DNA of 64,000 nucleotides from Escherichia coli (lineage in GTDB: Bacteria > Pseudomonadota > Gammaproteobacteria > Enterobacterales > Enterobacteriaceae), in NCBI RefSeq assembly GCF_050920415.1, contig NZ_CP169309.1; one strand, written 5' to 3'. Each line of letters begins with the position of its first letter. Position 1 is the stretch's first letter. The notes beneath the pieces were generated by a model. It saw nothing but the letters and a program-made list of their open reading frames with translations. It did not search any database and was not told the DNA's origin. Below, piece after piece: positions 12,276 to 25,829 of this stretch. The position numbers and the translations under genes are program-made.

Positions 12276-12716
12276 ATGGACAAGCAACGCGGTTTTACAC
12301 TTATCGAACTGATGGTGGTTATTGGCATCATTGCCATTTTAAGCGCCATTGGTATTCCCGCTTATCAAAACTACCTGCGCAAAGCCGCACTCACCGACAT
12401 GCTACAAACCTTTGTGCCTTACCGTACCGCCGTAGAGTTGTGCGCGCTGGAACATGGTGGATTAGATACCTGCGACGGTGGCAGCAATGGCATTCCCTCG
12501 CCTACCACCACCCGCTATGTTTCAGCCATGAGTGTGGCAAAGGGCGTGGTGTCGCTGACCGGGCAAGAAAGTCTCAATGGGCTAAGCGTCGTCATGACAC
12601 CGGGTTGGGATAACGCAAACGGCGTCACCGGCTGGACGCGCAACTGCAATATTCAAAGTGACAGCGCATTGCAGCAAGCCTGCGAAGATGTCTTTCGCTT
12701 TGATGACGCCAACTAA
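12276..12716 (+). CDS. ppdD: Type IV prepilin (major pilin-like) PpdD
   Basis: 146 aa ORF; N-terminus MDKQRGFTLIELMVVIGIIAILSAIGIP is a class III signal peptide (G/FTLIE cleavage motif). Confidence 0.95.
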   Translation: MDKQRGFTLIELMVVIGIIAILSAIGIPAYQNYLRKAALTDMLQTFVPYRTAVELCALEHGGLDTCDGGSNGIPSPTTTRYVSAMSVAKGVVSLTGQESLNGLSVVMTPGWDNANGVTGWTRNCNIQSDSALQQACEDVFRFDDAN

Positions 12717-12725
12717 GGAGCGGCA

Positions 12726-14111
12726 ATGAATATTCCACAGCTCACCGCCCTGTGTCTGCGTTATCAGGGAGTCTTGCTGGATGCCAGCGAAGAGGTGGTT
12801 CATGTTGCGGTGGTCGATGCCCCTTCGCATGAGCTACTGGACGCATTGCATTTCGCTACCACCAAACGTATTGAGATCACCTGCTGGACGCGCCAACAAA
12901 TGGAAGGTCACGCCAGTCGCACCCAACAGACATTGCCCGTAGCTATTCATGAGAAGCATCAGCCCAAAGCAGAGTTGCTGACTCGAACGTTACAATCTGC
13001 GCTGGAACAACGCGCGTCTGATATTCATATCGAACCAGCGGACAATGCCTACCGCATCCGCTTGCGTATCGACGGTGTATTGCATCCTTTACCGGATGTT
13101 TTACCGGATGCCGGAGTCGCATTAACCGCCAGATTAAAAGTGCTGGGCAACCTGGATATTGCGGAACATCGCCTGCCGCAGGACGGGCAATTCACTGTCG
13201 AACTGGCAGGAAACGCCGTCTCATTTCGTATTGCGACCTTACCATGCCAGGGTGGTGAAAAGGTGGTATTAAGGTTGTTACAGCAGGTGAGCCAGGCACT
13301 GGATATCAACACGCTGGGGATGCAGCCGTTACAACTGGCGGACTTTGCTCATGCCTTGCAACAACCACAGGGACTGGTGCTGGTAACTGGCCCTACAGGC
13401 AGCGGCAAAACGGTCACGCTTTATAGTGCCCTGCAAACGCTGAATACCGCTGACATTAATATTTGTAGCGTCGAAGATCCGGTTGAGATCCCCATAGCCG
13501 GACTAAACCAGACGCAAATCCATCCGCGTGCCGGTCTTACCTTTCAGGGCGTTTTGCGTGCGTTATTGCGCCAGGACCCTGACGTCATCATGATCGGAGA
13601 GATCCGCGATGGCGAAACAGCAGAGATCGCTATTAAAGCGGCGCAAACCGGTCACCTGGAGTTGTCTACCCTACACACCAATTCCACCACTGAAACGCTG
13701 GTACGTTTACAGCAAATGGGAGTCGCCCGCTGGATGCTCTCATCGGCGCTTACGCTGGTAATAGCCCAGCGTCTGGTACGTAAACTTTGCCCACATTGTC
13801 GCCTGCAGCAAGGGGAGCCCATCCATATTCCAGACAATGTATGGCCGTCGCCGCTGCCCCGCTGGCAAGCACCCGGTTGTGTACATTGCTACCACGGTTT
13901 TTATGGTCGCACGGCCTTATTTGAAGTTCTGCCCATAACACCGGTCATACGTCAGCTTATTTCCGCTAATACCGACGTTGAATCGCTGGAAACGCACGCC
14001 CGACAGGCGGGTATGCGAACGCTTTTTGAAAACGGCTGCCTGGCGGTGGAGCAAGGCTTAACCACCTTTGAAGAGTTAATCCGCGTATTGGGAATGCCGT
14101 ATGGCGAGTAA
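12726..14111 (+). CDS. hofB: Type IV pilus assembly ATPase (GspE/PilB family)
   Basis: 461 aa ORF with Walker A GPTGSGKT and Cys tetrad (CPHC..CVHC); between ppdD and hofC. Confidence 0.95.
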   Translation: MNIPQLTALCLRYQGVLLDASEEVVHVAVVDAPSHELLDALHFATTKRIEITCWTRQQMEGHASRTQQTLPVAIHEKHQPKAELLTRTLQSALEQRASDIHIEPADNAYRIRLRIDGVLHPLPDVLPDAGVALTARLKVLGNLDIAEHRLPQDGQFTVELAGNAVSFRIATLPCQGGEKVVLRLLQQVSQALDINTLGMQPLQLADFAHALQQPQGLVLVTGPTGSGKTVTLYSALQTLNTADINICSVEDPVEIPIAGLNQTQIHPRAGLTFQGVLRALLRQDPDVIMIGEIRDGETAEIAIKAAQTGHLELSTLHTNSTTETLVRLQQMGVARWMLSSALTLVIAQRLVRKLCPHCRLQQGEPIHIPDNVWPSPLPRWQAPGCVHCYHGFYGRTALFEVLPITPVIRQLISANTDVESLETHARQAGMRTLFENGCLAVEQGLTTFEELIRVLGMPYGE

Positions 14112-15303
14112 GCAACTCTGGCGCTGGCGTGGCATAACCGGCGACGGCAATGCGCAAGATGGGATGCTATGGGCAGAGAGCCGTGCTTTGCTGCTCATAG
14201 CACTACAGCAACAGATGGTTACCCCACTTAGCCTGAAGCGAATCGCCATCAATTCTGCGCAGTGGCGAGGAGATAAAAGCGCGGAAGTCATTCATCAACT
14301 GGCGACGCTACTCAAAGCCGGGTTAACGCTTTCTGAAGGGCTGGCACTGCTGGCGGAACAGCATCCCAGTAAGCAATGGCAAGCGTTGCTGCAATCGCTG
14401 GCGCACGATCTCGAACAGGGCATTGCTTTTTCCAATGCCTTATTACCCTGGTCAGAGGTATTTCCGCCGCTCTATCAGGCAATGATCCGCACGGGGGAAT
14501 TGACTGGTAAGTTAGATGAATGTTGCTTTGAACTTGCTCGACAGCAAAAAGCCCAACGTCAGTTAGCCGATAAAGTGAAATCAGCGTTGCGTTATCCCAT
14601 CATCATTTTAGCGATGGCAATCATGGTGGTTGTGGCAATGCTGCATTTTGTACTGCCGGAGTTTGCTGCTATCTACAAGACCTTTAACACCCCATTACCG
14701 GCGCTAACGCAGGGGATCATGACGCTGGCAGACTTTAGTGGCGAATGGGGCTGGCTGCTGCTGTTGTTCGGCTTACTGCTGGCAATAGCCAATAAGTTGC
14801 TGGTGCGCCGCCCGACCTGGCTCATCGTGAGGCAAAAATCACTGTTACGCATCCCAATTATGGGTTCACTGATGCGAGGGCAAAAACTCACGCAGATCTT
14901 TACGATTCTGGCGCTGACACAAAGTGCAGGCATTACTTTTTTACAGGGCGTAGAGAGCGTCAGAGCAACAATGCGCTGTCAGTACTGGGAGCAACTTCTG
15001 ACACAAATCCAGCACGATATCAGTAACGGTCATCCTATCTGGCTGGCGCTAAAAAATGCCGGTGAGTTTAGCCCGCTCTGTTTGCAATTAGTGAGAACAG
15101 GAGAGGCATCCGGTTCGCTGGATCTCATGTTAGACAACCTCGCCCGTCATCATCGGGATAACACCATGGCGCTGGCGGATAACCTTGCAGCCTTGCTCGA
15201 ACCGGTGTTGCTGGTCATAACGGGAGGAATTATCGGTACGCTAGTGGTGGCAATGTATTTGCCAATTTTCCATTTAGGCGATGCGATGAGTGGGATGGGA
15301 TAA
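14101..15303 (+). CDS. hofC: Type IV pilus platform protein (GspF/PilC family)
   Basis: 400 aa polytopic ORF; start overlaps hofB stop by 11 nt. Confidence 0.94.
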   Translation: MASKQLWRWRGITGDGNAQDGMLWAESRALLLIALQQQMVTPLSLKRIAINSAQWRGDKSAEVIHQLATLLKAGLTLSEGLALLAEQHPSKQWQALLQSLAHDLEQGIAFSNALLPWSEVFPPLYQAMIRTGELTGKLDECCFELARQQKAQRQLADKVKSALRYPIIILAMAIMVVVAMLHFVLPEFAAIYKTFNTPLPALTQGIMTLADFSGEWGWLLLLFGLLLAIANKLLVRRPTWLIVRQKSLLRIPIMGSLMRGQKLTQIFTILALTQSAGITFLQGVESVRATMRCQYWEQLLTQIQHDISNGHPIWLALKNAGEFSPLCLQLVRTGEASGSLDLMLDNLARHHRDNTMALADNLAALLEPVLLVITGGIIGTLVVAMYLPIFHLGDAMSGMG

Positions 15304-15304
15304 C

Positions 15305-15328
15305 GCTGGCGTGTTACTCCACGCCAGC
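15305..15328. terminator. Hairpin between convergent hofC and guaC
   Basis: GCTGGCGTG-ttactc-CACGCCAGC perfect 9-bp stem between the two stops; no strong U-run. Confidence 0.4.
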
Positions 15329-15337
15329 ATTGGGAGA

Positions 15338-16381
15338 TTACAGATTGTTGAAGATGCGGTTTTCTTGTTCCTGTACACGGATAAATGTGGTGCGCTTGGT
15401 CAGCTCTTTCAGGCGTGAAGCCCCAACGTATGTACAAGCTGAACGCAGGCCGCCCAAAATATCACGCGCGGTATTTTCAACCGGGCCTCGCAGCGGCAGC
15501 TTAACGGTTTTACCTTCTGCTGCGCGATATTCCGCAACGCCGCCAACGTGACGTTTCATCGCAGACTCGGAGCTCATGCCGTAGAACAGCATAAATTTCT
15601 CGCCGTTCTCCTCAACGATGCGACCACCGCTCTCTTCGTGGCCCGCCAGCATGCCGCCAAGCATGACGAAATCGGCACCGCCGCCAAAGGCTTTCGCGAC
15701 ATCGCCCGGCGTGGTGCAGCCACCGTCGCTGACGATCATTCCGCCCAGACCATGCGCAGCATCGGCACATTCGATCACCGCAGAAAGTTGCGGATAACCG
15801 ACGCCTGTTTTGACGCGAGTTGTACAAACAGAACCTGGGCCAATGCCAACTTTAACGATATCAGCACCGGAGAGGATAAGCTCCTCACACATTTCACCTG
15901 TCACGACGTTGCCAGCACAAATGGTTTTGGTCGGCCACGCTTCACGCGCTTTCGCAACGAACTGCACGAAGTGTTCGGAATAACCATTCGCCACGTCAAT
16001 ACAAACGAAGTTTAATGCCGGGTTCAGGTCGAGAATCTGTTTAGTTTTTTCGAAGTCCGCATCAGACGTACCGGTAGAAACCATCACATGTTTCAGCACA
16101 TCAGCGGAAGAATTGTTGATAAACGCTTGCCACTCTTCGACAGAATAGTGTTTATGCACAGCAGTCAGAATATCAAAAGAAGCCAGCGCAGAGGCCATAG
16201 AAAATGTGCCTACGGTGTCCATATTTGCGGCGATAATCGGCACGCCGGACCAGCTCTGACCTGAATGTTTGAAGGTGAATTGACGTTCCAGTTCAACATC
16301 GGAACGGCTTTTAAGAGTGGAGCGTTTAGGGCGGATGAGAACGTCTTTAAAACCTAACTTCAGATCTTCTTCAATACGCAT
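15338..16381 (-). CDS. guaC: GMP reductase
   Basis: 347 aa ORF ([35 protein letters not shown]..), IMPDH/GMPR fold. Confidence 0.97.
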
Positions 16382-16605
16382 GTGCGGATTCCTGGGGTTA
16401 ATGGCTATAAGGGTAAGAGCGCAACTCCAGTGACGCTATCATACGCACTAATCAATGCGGCGCAAGACTGCGAAATTGTCTTTTTTTACGCTACAATCCC
16501 ATAAATTTACCTGGTAAATAGTGAGCGAACGTTTCATCAATTTCGCTTTCGTGCGCTCATTTTTAACGTTTTGATAATCATGATGAATTCCCGGGAATAT
16601 AAATT

Positions 16606-17226
16606 ATGAGGTATATAGTTGCCTTAACGGGAGGCATTGGCAGTGGCAAGAGTACCGTTGCCAATGCGTTTGCTGATCTCGGAATTAACGTCATTGATGC
16701 CGATATTATTGCGCATCAGGTGGTTGAACCAGGTGCACCTGCGCTACATGCAATTGCTGATCACTTTGGCGCTAACATGATTGCTGCTGATGGAACATTG
16801 CAGCGCCGGGCCTTGCGCGAGCGGATTTTCGCCAACCCGGAAGAGAAAAACTGGCTTAACGCCCTGCTGCATCCGCTGATTCAGCAAGAGACGCAACACC
16901 AGATCCAGCAAGCATCTTCCCCCTATGTACTTTGGGTTGTGCCATTGCTGGTAGAAAACTCATTGTATAAAAAAGCGAATCGAGTGCTGGTGGTGGATGT
17001 CAGCCCAGAAACGCAACTTAAACGCACCATGCAGCGCGATGATGTCACTCGCGAGCATGTTGAACAAATTCTTGCTGCTCAGGCAACGCGCGAAGCCCGC
17101 CTTGCCGTGGCAGATGACGTCATTGATAATAACGGCGCACCGGATGCTATCGCATCGGATGTTGCCCGCCTGCACGCACACTATTTGCAGCTTGCGTCGC
17201 AGTTTGTCTCACAGGAAAAACCGTAA
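16606..17226 (+). CDS. coaE: Dephospho-CoA kinase
   Basis: 206 aa ORF; P-loop GGIGSGKST near N-terminus. Confidence 0.96.
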
Positions 17227-17969
17227 TGCAGACCCAGGTCCTTTTTGAACATCCACTAAATGAAAAAATGCGTACATGGCTGCGCATTGAGTTTTTGATT
17301 CAGCAACTCACCGTTAATCTACCCATCGTTGACCACGCTGGCGCGCTGCATTTCTTCCGTAATGTCAGTGAATTACTGGATGTTTTCGAGCGCGGCGAAG
17401 TCCGTACTGAGCTGTTGAAAGAACTTGACCGGCAGCAACGTAAACTCCAGACCTGGATTGGCGTGCCTGGCGTGGACCAGAGCCGTATTGAAGCATTAAT
17501 TCAGCAGTTAAAAGCGGCGGGGAGCGTATTAATTTCCGCGCCGCGTATCGGGCAATTTCTGCGTGAAGATCGTTTGATTGCTCTGGTGCGTCAGCGACTG
17601 AGCATCCCAGGCGGCTGTTGTAGCTTTGATTTACCTACATTGCACATTTGGCTGCATCTACCCCAGGCGCAGCGCGACAGCCAGGTAGAAACCTGGATTG
17701 CCAGCCTGAACCCGCTCAACCAGGCACTTACCATGGTGCTGGATTTAATTCGCCAGTCGGCCCCCTTCCGTAAACAAACCAGCCTGAATGGTTTTTATCA
17801 GGATAACGGTGGCGATGCCGACTTGCTGCGCCTGAATCTGTCGCTCGATTCACAGCTTTATCCGCAAATTTCCGGTCATAAGAGCCGTTTTGCCATTCGT
17901 TTTATGCCGCTGGACAGTGAAAACGGACAGGTACCGGAACGTCTGGATTTCGAACTGGCCTGTTGCTAA
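17226..17969 (+). CDS. zapD: Cell division protein ZapD (YacF)
   Basis: 247 aa ORF ([24 protein letters not shown]..); ATG overlaps coaE stop (TAATG). Confidence 0.95.
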
Positions 17970-17978
17970 GGAGTAAAA

Positions 17979-18176
17979 ATGTCAGAAACTATTACGGTGA
18001 ATTGCCCAACCTGCGGGAAAACGGTGGTGTGGGGTGAAATCAGCCCGTTTCGGCCATTTTGTTCCAAACGTTGTCAGCTGATCGACCTCGGAGAATGGGC
18101 TGCTGAAGAAAAACGAATCCCCAGCAGTGGCGATCTTTCCGAAAGCGATGACTGGAGCGAAGAGCCAAAGCAGTGA
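17979..18176 (+). CDS. yacG: DNA gyrase inhibitor YacG (zinc finger)
   Basis: 65 aa ORF with CPTCGK..CSKRCQ zinc ribbon and acidic C-terminus. Confidence 0.94.
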
Positions 18177-18185
18177 CATTTTATC

Positions 18186-18365
18186 TGATGCGACGCTGGC
18201 CTGATAAGACGCGGGCAGCGTCGCATCAGGCATCGTGTGCAAATGTCGGATGCGGCGGGAACGCCTTATCCGACCTGCAAGATCTTTTATATCAACGTGT
18301 TAAAAAATTGTAGGCCTGATAAGACGCGCCAGCGTCGCATCGGGCATCCAGTGTAAATGTTGGAT
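18186..18365. repeat. REP/BIME palindromic repeat cluster (yacG-mutT intergenic)
   Basis: Several copies of GCCTGATAAGACGCG..CGTCGCATCAGGC and GCCGGATGCGGCG-type palindromes. Confidence 0.85.
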
Positions 18366-18781: not shown

Positions 18782-18809
18782 AAAAAAGGCGCAGAATCCT
18801 GCGCCTTTT
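18782..18809 (-). terminator. Intrinsic terminator after secA (bidirectional-looking)
   Basis: aaaaaa-GGCGCAG-aatcc-TGCGCC-tttt; 18 bp downstream of the secA stop and about 15 bp upstream of the mutT start. Confidence 0.6.
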
Positions 18810-18826
18810 ACTTCAACTGTTAGCTT

Positions 18827-21532
18827 TTATTGCAGGCGACCGTGGCACTGCTTGTATTTTTTACCAGAACCGCACGGGCAAGGATCATTACGTCCAACTT
18901 TGCGTTCACCAGTTTGTGCCGCCAGTGCAGCTGCGGCTGCAGAGTCGTCATCCTGATGGCTAAGCTGCTGCATTTGCGCTAAACGCTCGGCTTCCATACG
19001 ACGCTGTTGTTCCAGCTCCTCAACCTCTTCAGGCATACGTACCTGAACTTTGCTCAGCGTGCTGATAACTTCATATTTCAACGACTCCAGCATCGCTGCA
19101 AACATGGAGAACGATTCACGTTTGTATTCCTGCTTCGGATCTTTCTGTGCATAGCCACGCAGGTGGATACCTTGACGCAGATAATCCATCGCCGCCAGGT
19201 GCTCTTTCCACAGGGAGTCAAGCGTTTGCAGCATGACGCCTTTCTCGAAGTGACGCATCATCTCAGCGCCAACCACTTCTTCTTTACGCTGATACACTTC
19301 GATGGACTGCGCCAGAATACGCTCACGCAGCGTCTCTTCATGCAGTTCTGGCTCTTTGTCCAGCCACTCGGCAATCGGCAAATCGAGGTCGAAATCGTTC
19401 TTCAGACGTTCCTGCAGCCCCGGAATATCCCACATTTCTTCCAGCGACTGCGGCGGAATGTAGGCATCGATGGTCGCTTTGAACACATCTTCACGAATGC
19501 TGTTGATGGTATCGCTCACATCGCTGACATCCAGCAGTTCATTACGCTGGGAGTAAATGGCGCGACGCTGATCGTTAGCCACGTCATCATATTCCAGCAG
19601 TTGCTTACGAATATCGAAGTTACGGCTTTCAACTTTACGCTGAGCGTTGGCAATCGCTTTGGTCACCCACGGGTGCTCGATGGCTTCGCCTGGTTTCATA
19701 CCCAGTTTACGCATCATGCCGGAAACACGGTCAGAAGCAAAAATACGCATCAGCGCATCTTCCATCGACAGGTAGAAACGGGAAGAACCGGCATCCCCCT
19801 GGCGCCCAGAACGACCGCGTAGCTGGTTATCGATACGACGAGATTCGTGACGTTCTGTACCGATGATATGCAGACCACCTGCAGCCAGTACCGCATCGTG
19901 ACGCACCTGCCAGTCGGCTTTGATTTTTTCAATTTGCTCTGCGGTCGGATTTTCCAGCGCGGCAACTTCTGCCTGCCAGCTACCACCGAGCACAATATCT
20001 GTACCACGACCCGCCATGTTAGTCGCGATAGTCACCGCCGCGGGATAACCCGCTTGTGCAACAATCGCTGCTTCGTTAGCGTGGAATTTGGCGTTCAGAA
20101 CGTTGTGTTTGATACCGGCTTTGGTCAGCTCGTTTGACACCAATTCCGATTTTTCGATGGAGATAGTACCCACCAGCACCGGCTGGCCTTTCGCAGTACG
20201 TTCTTTGATATCTTCAATGATCGCCTGAATTTTTTCCGCTTCAGTCATGTAGACCAGGTCCGGCAGATCTTTACGAATCATTGGACGGTTGGTCGGAACA
20301 ACGACGGTATCCAGCTTATAGATGGAGCTGAATTCGAAAGCTTCGGTATCAGCAGTACCGGTCATCCCCGCCAGTTTTTCATACAGACGGAAGTAGTTCT
20401 GGAAGGTGATCGACGCCAGCGTCTGGTTTTCGTTCTGGATCTGTACACCTTCTTTCGCTTCCACTGCCTGATGCAGGCCATCGGACCAACGACGTCCCTG
20501 CATGGTACGACCGGTGTGTTCGTCAACGATGATAACTTCACCATCTTTAACGATGTAGTCGACGTCTCGGGTAAACAGCGCATGAGCGCGCAGCGCCGCC
20601 GTTACGTGGTGCATCAGCATGATGTTGGCCGGAGAGTACAGAGACTCCCCTTCATCCATGATGCCTTCTTTCACCAGCAGTTCTTCAATCAGCACCAGAC
20701 CACGTTCGGTCAGGTTCACCTGGCGAGATTTTTCGTCCACCGAGAAGTGGCCTTCGCCCTGGAAGGTTTCGGAGTCTTCTTTTTCCTGACGGATCAGGTG
20801 CGGAATAATTTTATTCACGCGTTTATACATTTCCGAGCTGTCTTCTGCCGGGCCGGAAATGATCAGCGGTGTACGCGCTTCATCGATCAGGATGGAGTCC
20901 ACTTCGTCCACCAGCGCATAGTGCAGTTTACGCTGTACACGTTCTTCAGGGCTGAACGCCATGTTATCGCGCAGGTAGTCAAAGCCGTATTCGTTGTTCG
21001 TACCGTAAGTGATGTCAGCTGCGTAAGCTTCACGCTTCGCCGGTGCTGGCATGCCCGGCAGGTTGATACCGACAGTCAGGCCAAGGAATTCAAACAGCGG
21101 ACGGTTGTTTTCGGCGTCACGTTGCGCCAGGTAGTCGTTGACGGTAACAACGTGTACGCCCTTACCGGTTAATGCGTTCAGGTAAGCAGGCAGCGTTGCG
21201 GTCAGGGTTTTACCTTCACCGGTACGCATTTCCGCGATGCAGCGTTCGTTAAGAACCATACCGCCGAGTAACTGAACGTCGAAGTGACGCATACCAAAGA
21301 CGCGCTTACTTGCCTCACGCACCACAGCGAAAGCTTCTGGGATCAGATTTTCCAGCACTTCGCCTTTTTCCAGACGTGCACGAAACTCTGCGGTTTTCCC
21401 TTTCAGTTCTTCGTCGGAGAGTTTTTCCATCTCCGGTTCCATGGCATTGATGATGTTGACGACTTTGCGCATCCGGCGCAGGGTGCGATCGTTACGACTA
21501 CCGAAAACTTTAGTTAATAATTTGATTAGCAT
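18827..21532 (-). CDS. secA: Preprotein translocase ATPase SecA
   Basis: 901 aa ORF ([23 protein letters not shown]..), C-terminal zinc motif [14 protein letters not shown]. Confidence 0.98.
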
Positions 21533-23354: not shown

Positions 23355-24506
23355 TTAATCAGCTTGCTTACGCAGGAATGCTGGGATATCCAGATAATCC
23401 GGCTCTTTCGCAGTTTGCGGTGCGTTGTCATTCACGACTTTAGCAACCGGTTTCTGCTCCTGAGTCAGCGGTGCCATCCCGTGCTGCTGGTAGCGATCCA
23501 TCACTGGCTGCTGAACCTGCTTATTGGTCACCAGGGTGATTTCAGGACGTTTGTCCATACCGATACCTGTCGCAACAACGGTTACGCGCAGCTCGTCATT
23601 CATATCCGGGTCAAGAGAAGTACCGATAACCACAGTTGCGTTGTCGGATGCAAATGCACGGATGGTGTTACCTACCGTTTCGAACTCATCCAGACGCAGG
23701 TCGAAGCCCGCCGTGATGTTAACCAGCACGCCGCGCGCGCCAGACAGATCGATATCTTCCAGCAGCGGAGAGGAGATAGCCATTTCAGCAGCTTCTTCCG
23801 CACGGTCTTCGCCGCTCGCCACACCAGAACCCATCATTGCGTAGCCCATTTCAGACATTACGGTACGTACGTCTGCAAAGTCCACGTTCATCAGGCCTGG
23901 ACGAGTAATCAGTTCAGCGATACCTTGCACAGCACCTTTCAGTACATCGTTCGCTGCGCCAAATGCATCCAGCAGGGAGATACCGCGGCCCAAGACTTTC
24001 AGCAGTTTGTCGTTAGGGATAGTGATCAGAGAGTCCACATGCTTGGACAGTTCAGTGATCCCCTGCTCAGCGAATGCCATACGCTTCTTGCCTTCAAAGT
24101 TGAAAGGCTTAGTCACGACAGCAACGGTCAGGATCCCCAAATCTTTTGCCACTTCAGCGACAACTGGTGCTGCACCTGTACCGGTACCACCACCCATACC
24201 CGCAGCAATAAAGACCATGTCTGCACCTTCCAGCGCCGCACGCAGTGCATCGCGATCCTCATCAGCCGCATTACGGCCAACTTCTGGATTTGCGCCAGCT
24301 CCCAGTCCTTTGGTGATACCGCTACCGATTTGAATCGTCTGTCCAACCGCTGTTTTACGCAGCGCTTGTGCATCGGTATTTACCGCGAAGAATTCAACAC
24401 CTTCAATGCGCTCGCGCACCATGTGTTCAACAGCATTACCGCCGCCGCCGCCGACGCCGATGACTTTAATCACCGCGTCATTGGTAAGTTCCATTGGTTC
24501 AAACAT
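23355..24506 (-). CDS. ftsZ: Tubulin-like cell division GTPase FtsZ
   Basis: 383 aa ORF with tubulin signature GGGTGTG. Confidence 0.98.
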
Positions 24507-24566
24507 AGTTTCTCTCCGATTTGTGCCTGTCGCCTGAGGCCGTAATCATCGTCGGCCTCATAAAAA

Positions 24567-25829
24567 TTAAAACTCTTTTCGCAGCCAACTATTGAGTCGC
24601 TTGATCCACGAGCCAACTGATGCTGTAACACGTTTTTCTACTTCAGCTTCACCGTTAAGATGTGACTCTTTCCCATAGTGAAGCAATCCCACCGCCGTCG
24701 AATAATACGGCTCCTGAGCATAATCCGTTAAACCGGTAATGTTCAGCGGCGCGCCGATACGCACTTGCGTATGAAACACGCGCTGAGCACAGGCTGCAAG
24801 ACCTTCGATCTGCGCTGCGCCACCAGTTAAAACAATGCCTGCCGCCAGGTGATGTTTAACCCCTTGTTGGCGAAGCTTTTCCTGCAACTGCAATATCTCT
24901 TCGTTGACCAGGTTGAGCAGCTCGGTATAGCGCGGCTCGATCACCTCTGCCAGGGTCTGACGTTGCAGACTCCGCGGTGGACGACCGCCTACGCTCGGCA
25001 CTTCCACGCTCTCATCTTTTCCAACGATGGAACCCAGCGCACAACCGTGGCGAACTTTAATCGCTTCGGCGTCGCTTGGCGGCGTGCCAAAGGCGTAAGC
25101 GATATCACTGGTCACGACATTGCCAGCATAAGGAATTACCTTAGTGTGGCGCAATGCCCCACCGGTATAAACGGCGATATCCATTGTACCACCACCGATA
25201 TCGACGACGCAGACACCCAGTTCACGTTCATCTTCCGTCAATACCGAATAACTTGATGCCAGTCCGGCAAATATCAGTTGGTCAACTTTCAGCCCACAAC
25301 GTTCAACCGCTTTGACGATGTTTTTCGCCATATCGTTGTGACATGTGATCAGATGCACTTTTGCCTGCATCCGCACGCCCGAAAGTCCTACCGGATTCTT
25401 GATCCCTTCCTGATAGTCAATCGCATACTCTTGCGGGATCACATGCAGCACACGATGCTCATCGCGCACACGCACTGATTTCGCGGTATGGACGACGTTT
25501 TCCACATCTTCTTGCGTCACTTCTTCTTCAGAAATAGGCACCATACCAATTTCATTCTGGCAGCTGATGTGCTTACCAGAAAGCGCCAGATATACCGAAG
25601 AGATCTGACAATCTGCCATCAATTCTGCCTGGTCAATGGCGCGTTGTACGCACTTGACCACGGATTCGAGGTCGTTTACCCCGCCTTTATCCATACCACG
25701 CGACGGGCAGCTGCCCACGCCAATGATATTGACCATACCGTCGGGCAGAACTTCCCCTACTAAAGCGGCAACCTTCGCGGTACCAATCTCCAGTCCTACT
25801 ACCAGTTTTCTGTCCGTCGCCTTGATCAT
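24567..25829 (-). CDS. ftsA: Actin-like cell division protein FtsA
   Basis: 420 aa ORF ([27 protein letters not shown]..). Confidence 0.97.

Follow-up and report, generated by a model that had tools for sequence, protein, structure and literature searches.

We identify the three consecutive genes at positions 12276-15303 of the analysed Escherichia coli DNA (a 64-kb stretch, hereafter the window) as the known chromosomal ppdD-hofB-hofC operon, and are highly confident in this assignment. The operon encodes parts of a type IVa/DNA-uptake pilus whose expression is expected to depend on CRP and Sxy, and its three reading frames are open, with the caveat of a valine-to-glutamate substitution at residue 312 of the HofB ATPase (V312E). 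Its status as a known core operon follows from three observations: out of 5426 complete E. coli genomes, 5424 match the locus and 5423 carry 80% or more of it as a single piece, it lies between nadC and guaC, and its mature pilin is identical at 139 of 140 residues to the subunit of the EHEC PpdD pilus (PDB 6GV9). We encountered no evidence that contradicts the identity of the operon. ppdD-hofB-hofC is a textbook cryptic core locus in which open frames are the rule, and its recognition here as such is correct but ordinary. Open frames are necessary, not sufficient, for function, and a radical substitution in the His box of the motor, such as this lineage has, is invisible to inspection of open reading frames.

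Organization of the locus and its products

The open reading frame listing of the window revealed no frameshifts and no stops within the frames of ppdD, hofB and hofC (Table 1), and their lengths of 441, 1386 and 1203 nt equal those of the K-12 genes (b0108-b0106). The genes, their order, their junctions and their flanks are likewise the same as in K-12, with the order ampE-ampD-nadC-ppdD-hofB-hofC-guaC-coaE. At the nucleotide level, the window diverges from K-12 by 3.5% in hofB and 5.3% in hofC, which translates into 13 amino acid differences in HofB and 18 in HofC, including HofB V312E and HofC P294Q. The latter is rare, being found in 2 of the 5426 complete genomes. The PpdD protein is identical to that of K-12, a wild-type pilin; at the DNA level, a single nucleotide differs from K-12 across the 441 of this short gene. 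In a sample of 14 genomes, the piS of ppdD is low, at roughly half the value of the flanking genes.

The hofB and hofC genes overlap by 11 nt (ATGGCGAGTAA), the sole overlapping junction of the operon. The ppdD/hofB junction is close-coupled and non-overlapping, with a 9-nt spacer and a Shine-Dalgarno sequence (AAGGAG) overlapping the stop codon of ppdD. The first-pass annotation had described a fully intact operon with overlapping junctions. As far as the reading frames are concerned this description stands, as it does for the hofB/hofC overlap; it does not extend to the ppdD/hofB junction or, given HofB V312E, to functional integrity. Its further statement that this is the only surface-machinery cluster of the window is in line with a collinear annotated record, where the other genes are housekeeping ones (pdh, the dcw cluster, secA, lpxC, leu, thi and ara), leaving the operon as the sole pilus or secretion cluster. 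An Rfam scan and a repeat search returned no matches inside the ppdD-hofB-hofC locus. The hairpin between hofC and guaC is strong (-18.1 kcal/mol, z-score -3.3 by RNA folding), but a candidate intrinsic terminator 3' of hofC was rejected because a T tract is absent on both strands. For the same reason any terminator role of this hairpin is a putative one, with a bidirectional transcript end being possible.

Table 1. Features of the ppdD-hofB-hofC region, in coordinates of the window.
Feature	Position	Strand	Remarks
Candidate CRP-S (Sxy-dependent CRP) site TTCTTCGTAACGCCTCGCAAAT	12129-12150	+	Diagnostic C6 and G17; right half perfect
Putative -10-like hexamer CGTAAT	12170-12175	+	Read from the sequence; ~30 nt downstream of the CRP-S centre
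ppdD, major type IVa prepilin (146 aa)	12276-12716	+	ATG start, without internal stop
hofB, PilB/GspE-family hexameric assembly ATPase (461 aa)	12726-14111	+	ATG start, without internal stop
HofB Walker A GPTGSGKT (residues 222-229)	13389-13412	+	Columns invariant or nearly so in alignment A1
HofB His box GHLELSTLH (residues 309-317)	13650-13676	+	From the sequence
HofB tetracysteine motif CPHC (355-358)...CVHC (385-388)	13788-13889	+	From the sequence
hofC, PilC/GspF-family inner-membrane platform protein (400 aa)	14101-15303	+	ATG start, without internal stop
GC-rich 9-bp hairpin in the 34-nt gap between convergent hofC and guaC	15305-15328	none	Predicted by RNA folding

All three products score above the curated cut-offs of their NCBIfam equivalog models, which, along with the K-12 synteny, upholds the original naming of the operon: PpdD reaches 269 bits with NF007862 (cut-off 138), HofB 812 bits with PRK10436 (cut-off 617) and HofC 654 bits with NF007861 (cut-off 401). 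PpdD begins with a basic 6-residue leader, MDKQRG, followed by FTLIELMVVIGIIAILSAIG, with G-1, F+1 and E+5 and a hydrophobic N-terminal helix, as in a class III signal peptide, and the Pfam N_methyl (E 2.5e-10) and TIGR02532 (E 4e-9) models both match it. Its four cysteines, at prepilin positions 56, 66, 124 and 136, could form the two disulfides of enterobacterial pilins, a pattern that has been described (bioRxiv 10.1101/2021.04.14.439816).

HofB matches the Pfam T2SSE model with an E-value of 1e-144 and the PilB and GspE structures in the PDB with values down to 4e-104, and its AlphaFold2 model has a mean pLDDT of 90.9. Beside the Walker A motif it possesses an Asp box (EDPVE, 250-254), an atypical Walker B motif (VIMIGEIR, 287-294) and the His-box histidines H310 and H317, all of them in invariant or nearly invariant columns of alignment A1. 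The residues C355, C358, C385 and C388 are invariant in a 61-sequence alignment and constitute the tetracysteine motif, which binds zinc and is typical for ATPases of the PilB/GspE clade (PMC5424180). HofC has two T2SSF domains (PF00482 in two stretches, E 2e-56) and matches the PilC structure 3JC8 with an E-value of 5e-45. Hence, the description of the products as a prepilin with a class III signal peptide (here the MDKQRG leader and the N_methyl match), a GspE-type ATPase with Walker A and cysteine tetrad, and a full-length GspF-type platform protein is borne out in each case.

Regulation and proposed mode of action

The first-pass annotation had the operon as silent in the laboratory and implicated in DNA uptake, and published work agrees on both points. 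The ppdD transcript escaped detection, and its level rises 90-fold on induction by Sxy, in dependence on CRP (PMC1635313). Cultures of 72 ECOR strains yielded no PpdD, K-12 PpdD is reported to be processed after Sxy induction, and Sxy-dependent DNA uptake requires hofQ (PMC3330819); for the use of DNA as a nutrient, the same paper serves as a second-hand source (PMC3330819).

CRP binding and Sxy dependence were established on a K-12 fragment (PMC1635313), and the candidate CRP-S 22-mer falls inside this ppdD promoter fragment, which CRP bound in an electrophoretic mobility shift assay. We infer that the CRP-S site is exactly this 22-mer. The 16-nt CRP-S core is matched at 12132-12147 with two mismatches; it is the same as in K-12 and identical in all 15 aligned E. 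coli sequences. The motif scan was discarded as stand-alone evidence: it gave 36 matches across the window against 47 expected, which is not above chance, and the match at this position is not significant by itself. The scan therefore counts here solely in combination with the mobility-shift fragment and the conservation of the core. The spacing between the CRP-S site and the -10-like hexamer, in which base 12172 is polymorphic (T in the window, A in K-12), suggests a class II geometry with a predicted transcription start near 12182. A consensus scan of 11900-15600 found no sigma-70-type promoter (0 against 3.1 expected), which fits an activator-dependent promoter.

Drawing on homologous systems and the papers cited here, we propose the following mode of action. 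The operon would stay off unless CRP-cAMP and Sxy act jointly at the CRP-S site approximately 136 nt upstream of ppdD. Once made, the PpdD prepilin is likely to insert into the inner membrane, where PppA or GspO, which are encoded elsewhere, would cut off the 6-residue leader after Gly-1. By analogy with related motors, the HofB hexamer would hydrolyse ATP and, acting via the HofC platform, lift pilins from the membrane onto the growing pilus. Four minor pilins (PpdA, PpdB, YgdB and PpdC) probably prime this filament, which would then cross the HofMNOP alignment complex and, after it, the HofQ secretin. None of the genes hofMNOPQ, ppdAB-ygdB-ppdC or those for a prepilin peptidase is located within the 64-kb window. 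In MFDS1022581, a near-clonal sister genome that differs from the window by four SNPs and one 15-nt indel over 64 kb, hofMNOPQ, gntX, dprA, pppA, yggR and ppdAB-ygdB-ppdC are all annotated as intact. Neither outcome that would have refuted the first-pass annotation was obtained: the frames in the window show no frameshifts or stops, and the secretin operon and the prepilin peptidase gene are intact in this close relative.

Parallels with other pilus and secretion systems

The hemorrhagic coli pilus operon hcpA-hcpB-hcpC of EHEC O157:H7 is the same locus and the same operon, and its pilin differs from that of the window only at prepilin position 121 (T in the window, A in EHEC). EHEC is reported to make PpdD pili on Minca medium (PMC2920817). 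When ppdD-hofBC of EHEC is expressed in K-12, PpdD appears at the surface (PMC2649431). Further, the operon has been linked to adhesion in EHEC in the literature, and a kidney-colonisation defect has been tied to hofQ in UPEC (PMC2649431).

The pilABCD genes of Haemophilus influenzae and pilA/pilBCD of Pseudomonas aeruginosa supply the same functions, namely a major pilin, a PilB-type ATPase and a PilC-type platform protein, and in Haemophilus the CRP-S/Sxy control is the same as well (PMC1635313). HofB shares about 45-50% identity with those PilB ATPase cores that have been solved; its N-terminus is about 100 residues shorter than that of PilB and it falls under the TIGR02538 PilB cut-off. 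Unlike in Haemophilus and Pseudomonas, no pilD follows hofC: guaC converges upon it instead, and the peptidase gene pppA is unlinked, as seen in the sister genome. The GspG-GspE-GspF components of type II secretion systems, such as Klebsiella Pul and the E. coli T2SS-beta, comprise a homologous pilin-like subunit, tetracysteine ATPase and platform protein, and type II secretion has the prepilin peptidase in common with the PpdD system. It forms a periplasmic pseudopilus, whereas the product of the PpdD system is an extended pilus.

The HofB V312E substitution and alternative readings

Codon 312 of HofB (13659-13661) is GAG (Glu) in the window and GTG (Val) in K-12. The changed base lies directly 3' of a Dcm site (CCTGG followed by A). 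Residue 312, the equivalent of V415 of Geobacter PilB, is situated between the two His-box histidines, which contact the gamma-phosphate and take part in inter-subunit coupling (PMC5424180), and in the AlphaFold2 model residues 311-316 form a beta strand within the confidently modelled core. The position is occupied by valine in all 117 homologs and, across 150 diverse relatives, by V in 149, L in 10 and I in 3 motifs, making it aliphatic in 162 of 162; HofB of the window, with its glutamate, is devoid of this feature. With a profile penalty of 5.3 bits, V312E is the costliest of the 13 HofB differences from K-12. A 41-mer bearing E312 was recovered from 1 of the 5426 complete genomes and the corresponding V312 41-mer from 5156. 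Judged by conservation, this lineage-specific substitution, located in the strand between the two His-box histidines, is probably damaging and more likely weakens or abolishes the motor than leaves it unharmed. On account of V312E, the open frames are no proof of a working motor. The aliphatic residue is a conserved feature and not a formal family criterion, and its replacement lowers confidence in the activity of HofB, not in its homology.

A basecalling artefact, considered in view of the adjacent Dcm site and of an amber codon inside such a site in the hofC of the sister genome, is rejected as the source of V312E: 84 contigs, whose accessions stem from several separate submissions, encode the exact HofB protein with E312, and one draft assembly matches the window over 7386 nt at 100% identity, with all three frames open there as well. 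The same 84 contigs eliminate the possibility that the change is private to a clone of two genomes; it is an allele of a lineage, if still one that is seen in 1 of 5426 RefSeq complete genomes. As HofB is unchanged on these 84 contigs, E312 has persisted in the lineage, which is compatible with its being tolerated. The sole complete genome that shares E312 is the sister genome, where hofC carries an amber codon (W240*). Tentatively, and with more doubt than conviction, we raise the possibility that V312E is a natural loss-of-function or strongly hypomorphic allele of a small lineage, whose pilus and DNA-uptake motor would then be dead in spite of three seemingly flawless frames, with the amber codon in the sister hofC as a second hit, and that the two mark the earliest decay of a cryptic operon. 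Were E312 inactive, the lineage would amount to a set of natural hofB mutants, usable for testing the role of the pilus in DNA uptake, in utilisation of DNA as a nutrient or in colonisation.

Three readings other than that of a known pilus operon with a probably impaired motor deserve consideration. According to one, the genes are components of type II secretion rather than of a pilus system. RefSeq indeed names the hofB product 'type II secretion system protein GspE', the NCBI equivalog for HofB is named 'GspE', HofB and HofC share their superfamilies with GspE and GspF, and the Klebsiella Pul secreton can assemble PpdD (cited in PMC2649431). However, HofB scores below the curated cut-offs of both GspE (TIGR02533, 450 against 630) and PilB (TIGR02538, 480 against 676), and since PRK10436 is the only cut-off passed, HofB represents an orthologous group of its own within the PilB/GspE clade. 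HofC similarly falls short for GspF (TIGR02120, 263 against 424 bits), PpdD is a genuine pilin whose pilus structure has been solved, and in the window no pseudopilin genes and no gspC/D/L/M adjoin the operon. Moreover, the sister genome has a separate, complete T2SS-beta cluster that includes a gspE, gspF and gspG of its own, and we consider this reading very improbable. It is hardly more credible that the genes are neutral junk, open by chance and functionless in any E. coli. Their piN/piS values in 14 genomes (ppdD 0.13, hofB 0.11, hofC 0.12) lie far below 1, which argues for purifying selection on all three, including ppdD, for which a dN/dS-type check had been suggested. These values are nevertheless 3- to 6-fold above those of the flanking housekeeping genes (nadC 0.04, guaC 0.02), and the raised synonymous diversity of hofB and hofC in the same sample, as well as the absence of PpdD from cultures of all 72 ECOR strains, could be read in favor of neutrality. 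Against it speak the near-universal presence of the locus, nearly always in one piece; full-length orthologs with 66-89% identity in E. albertii, E. fergusonii, Citrobacter, Salmonella, Enterobacter and other Enterobacteriaceae; and published phenotypes in the form of DNA uptake (PMC3330819), EHEC pili (PMC2920817) and the hofQ effect in UPEC (PMC2649431).

The remaining alternative, to which we accord a considerable chance of being right while leaning against it, is that this lineage carries the operon as a relic undergoing decay: the motor would already be dead through V312E, the intactness of the frames only apparent, and additional hits would be building up. The aliphatic conservation of the replaced residue in all 162 motifs and its invariance as valine in the 117 closer homologs, the largest profile penalty among the differences from K-12, and the place of residue 312 in the modelled core strand between the His-box histidines (PMC5424180) all favor such decay, as does the rarity of E312 among complete genomes, whose one carrier also has the hofC amber. 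Pseudogenes occur elsewhere in the species, too, with a hofB frameshift in MIN14 and, in GN03204, a hofB that is annotated as partial and spans the start of the record. The persistence of HofB on its 84 contigs, and of the exact HofC protein on 103, runs counter to decay, and because the draft assembly identical over 7386 nt keeps three open frames, there is no sign of its rapid further progress. Finally, the amber codon of the sister hofC lies within a Dcm deamination hotspot (CCTGG to CCTAG) and could be an independent accident.

Identity and integrity of the operon

The region is the known core operon ppdD-hofB-hofC, named hcpABC in EHEC. This assignment follows from matches to the locus across the species, from gene order and gene lengths equal to those of K-12 MG1655, from the structural match of PpdD, from the homologs of HofB and HofC, and from the orthologs of HofB. 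The first-pass annotation had identified and read the operon in the same way, and is supported by the K-12 order as well as by model scores: PpdD and HofC exceed the curated cut-offs of their NCBIfam equivalog models (269 against 138 bits and 654 against 401 bits, respectively), as HofB does for PRK10436 (812 against 617 bits), a model of the HofB group that NCBI names 'GspE'. None of the canonical NCBIfam PilB, GspE and GspF models reaches its cut-off with the operon products. At the level of Pfam domains, PpdD combines N_methyl and Pilin, HofB has T2SSE (E 1e-144) plus a weak MshEN N-domain, and HofC has two T2SSF domains. Mature PpdD is identical to the EHEC PpdD pilus subunit (PDB 6GV9) at 139 of 140 residues, HofB matches solved PilB, GspE and PilF ATPases (best E 4e-104), and HofC matches PilC. 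HofB has full-length orthologs in E. albertii, E. fergusonii, Citrobacter, Salmonella, Enterobacter, Lelliottia, Kosakonia and others.

The three consecutive frames are all open where they had been placed, and the motifs named for them were all recovered: the prepilin leader and cleavage site (MDKQRG|FTLIE), the HofB Walker A motif (GPTGSGKT, residues 222-229) and the Cys tetrad (CPHC at 355-358 and CVHC at 385-388). The claim of overlapping junctions holds for hofB/hofC, which share 11 nt, but not for ppdD/hofB, which are separated by 9 nt with an AAGGAG ribosome-binding site overlapping the ppdD stop codon. Upstream lie ampE, ampD and nadC, and downstream the convergent guaC, followed by coaE, zapD and yacG; the base composition is ordinary, with an operon GC of 0.49-0.55, similar to the flanks. 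The 34-nt gap between hofC and guaC holds a GC-rich hairpin with a 9-bp stem, GCTGGCGTG/CACGCCAGC (-18.1 kcal/mol, z-score -3.3), with no T tract on either side.

Features of the operon, its flanks and the rest of the window, with diversity in 14 genomes
Feature	Position	Strand	Product or source	piN/piS	piS
tp2	6811-6924		Rfam
nadC (flank)	11180-12073			0.04	~0.055 (flanks 0.052-0.057)
Candidate CRP-S site	12129-12150		22-mer
-10-like hexamer	12170-12175		CGTAAT
ppdD	12276-12716	+	146 aa; ORF list for 10000-18000	0.13	0.028
hofB	12726-14111	+	461 aa; ORF list for 10000-18000	0.11	0.081
hofC	14101-15303	+	400 aa; ORF list for 10000-18000	0.12	0.114
Hairpin	15305-15328
guaC (flank)	15338-16381			0.02	~0.055 (flanks 0.052-0.057)
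naRNA4	18198-18275		Rfam
STnc40	18782-18851		Rfam
PssrA-like sRNA, ftsA-ftsZ junction	24498-24587		Rfam
Leu leader	46084-46233		Rfam
SgrS	50992-51218		Rfam
TPP riboswitch	52975-53074		Rfam

Distribution and selection in E. coli

Almost all E. coli carry this previously described operon: segment 12074-15337 is matched in 5424 of 5426 complete genomes, in 5423 of those 5424 with at least 80% of it in one piece, and the one-piece loci are always annotated as ppdD, gspE (hofB) and hofC. The K-12 PpdD protein is identical to that of the window, its gene differing by a single synonymous base; HofB and HofC differ by 13 and 18 residues. Across the window, K-12 and 12 genomes spread over the identity range (n = 14), the operon is under purifying selection, several-fold weaker than that on its housekeeping neighbours. 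Synonymous diversity climbs along the operon from ppdD through hofB to hofC in these 14 genomes. Differences from close relatives are clustered along the region, which suggests recombination mosaics. In MIN14, hofB is frameshifted; in GN03204 it is annotated as partial, but the gene there spans the record start. N_methyl and T2SSE also occur together in rare E. coli entries of the protein database, 527-576 aa long (P0002, P0003, P0015), apparently the result of read-through or fusion between PpdD and HofB.

A rare HofB allele and the sister genome

What the present analysis adds is V312E alone, an allele which shows that open frames are no proof of a functional apparatus. In hofB of the window, codon 312 reads GAG (Glu); K-12 and each of the 12 further sampled strains whose hofB is full length have GTG (Val). 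A 41-mer carrying the E allele matches one of 5426 complete genomes, the sister genome MFDS1022581, as against 5156 for the V allele. The changed base lies directly 3' of a Dcm site, and a methylation-linked basecalling error was suspected; this is excluded by the exact HofB protein on 84 contigs and by the draft genome GCA_002133995.1, which matches the window without a difference over 7386 nt. The allele is thus genuine and rare, and belongs to a lineage.

Residue 312 falls within the His box (GHLELSTLH), between H310 and H317. These two histidines correspond to H413 and H420 of Geobacter PilB, which contact the ATP gamma-phosphate and a threonine in the adjacent subunit (PMC5424180). In an AlphaFold2 model (mean pLDDT 90.9), residues 311-316 form a beta strand between two helices. 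Position 312 is Val in 117 of 117 homologs of 66-97% identity; in the His boxes of 150 cluster representatives (162 motifs, 38-59% identity) it is Val in 149, Leu in 10, Ile in 3 and never polar. On a profile of 57 relatives, reverting E312 to Val gains 5.3 bits, whereas each of the other twelve differences from K-12 shifts the score by at most 1.9 bits. Judged by such conservation, V312E is probably damaging to HofB, while the fact that many contigs retain the allele would also fit with its being tolerated. It could be a sign that the operon is beginning to decay in this lineage, a tentative reading judged less likely than not.

MFDS1022581 (NZ_CP169399.1) is collinear with the window, differing over 64 kb by four SNPs and, in thiP, a single in-frame indel of 15 nt. 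Its hofC, flagged by RefSeq as a pseudogene, carries an amber codon, W240* (TGG to TAG; A for G at window 14819), where the window retains TGG. The change converts CCTGG to CCTAG within a Dcm site, a classic 5-methylcytosine deamination amber hotspot. HofC P294Q (codon 294, 14980-14982; CCG or CCA to CAG) is likewise rare: of the 5426 complete genomes, only two match its 41-mer context, MFDS1022581 and EC42405, a bovine strain. The latter has a HofC identical to the window's but a HofB with V312, and its hofB (2754-4151 of L019, the EC42405 locus) encodes 465 aa owing to an in-frame LPDV insertion that follows residue 121.

The reading of the operon as intact had been made to hinge on secretin and prepilin peptidase genes elsewhere in the genome. 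In MFDS1022581, the closest available genome, it survives: hofMNOPQ and pppA are annotated intact there, along with gntX, dprA, the PilT-like yggR and the minor pilin cluster ppdA-ppdB-ygdB-ppdC. The full-length prepilin peptidase there is pppA, in a complete, intact T2SS-beta cluster away from the bfr-rpsJ interval. That interval, the K-12 position of the gsp-alpha type II secretion cluster, lacks the cluster in MFDS1022581; all that remains is an ORF of 155 aa that contains a complete Peptidase_A24 domain (L020, the MFDS1022581 locus, 8375-8842; E 1.7e-21).

Regulation, silence and surroundings

A consensus scan of 11900-15600 found no sigma-70-type promoter, with 3.1 expected by chance. The 202-nt nadC-ppdD spacer contains a candidate CRP-S site, TTCTTCGTAACGCCTCGCAAAT, with a perfect right half (TCGCA) and the C6/G17 pair that defines such sites; taken alone, this motif match is not above chance. 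Its 16-nt core is the same in 15 of 15 aligned E. coli sequences, and its position falls within the fragment of K-12 DNA shown to bind CRP in vitro (PMC1635313). Sxy induces ppdD 90-fold, dependent on CRP and cAMP (PMC1635313). The -10-like hexamer would put the candidate at about -41.5, a class II geometry. Base 12172 within this hexamer is polymorphic (T here, A in K-12 giving CGAAAT, and G in F2_81), and might alter basal promoter strength.

The silence in the laboratory and the role in DNA uptake ascribed to the operon both find support in the literature. The ppdD transcript had escaped earlier efforts at detection (PMC1635313), and no PpdD was made in culture by any of 72 ECOR strains (PMC3330819). 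On Minca medium, pili of PpdD are formed by EHEC (PMC2920817), and EHEC ppdD-hofBC expressed in K-12 yields surface PpdD (PMC2649431). A hofQ mutant loses Sxy-dependent DNA uptake (PMC3330819), and the same paper cites growth on DNA as dependent on competence-gene homologs.

The operon also stands as the sole pilus or secretion cluster of the window, as had been proposed: elsewhere the collinear MFDS1022581 annotation lists only housekeeping genes, namely yacH, lpd, aceEF, pdhR, aroP, secA/M, lpxC, the dcw division/cell-wall cluster, cra, ilvIH, leuO, leuLABCD, sgrRST, thiBPQ, araCBAD and polB. An Rfam scan of the window gave no match inside the ppdD-hofC locus and seven above the gathering score elsewhere. 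At about 54092-54093 in thiP, the window is without the 15-nt stretch CGGCTGGTTAATTCC, in part a tandem duplication of GTTAATTCC, which is present in MFDS1022581.
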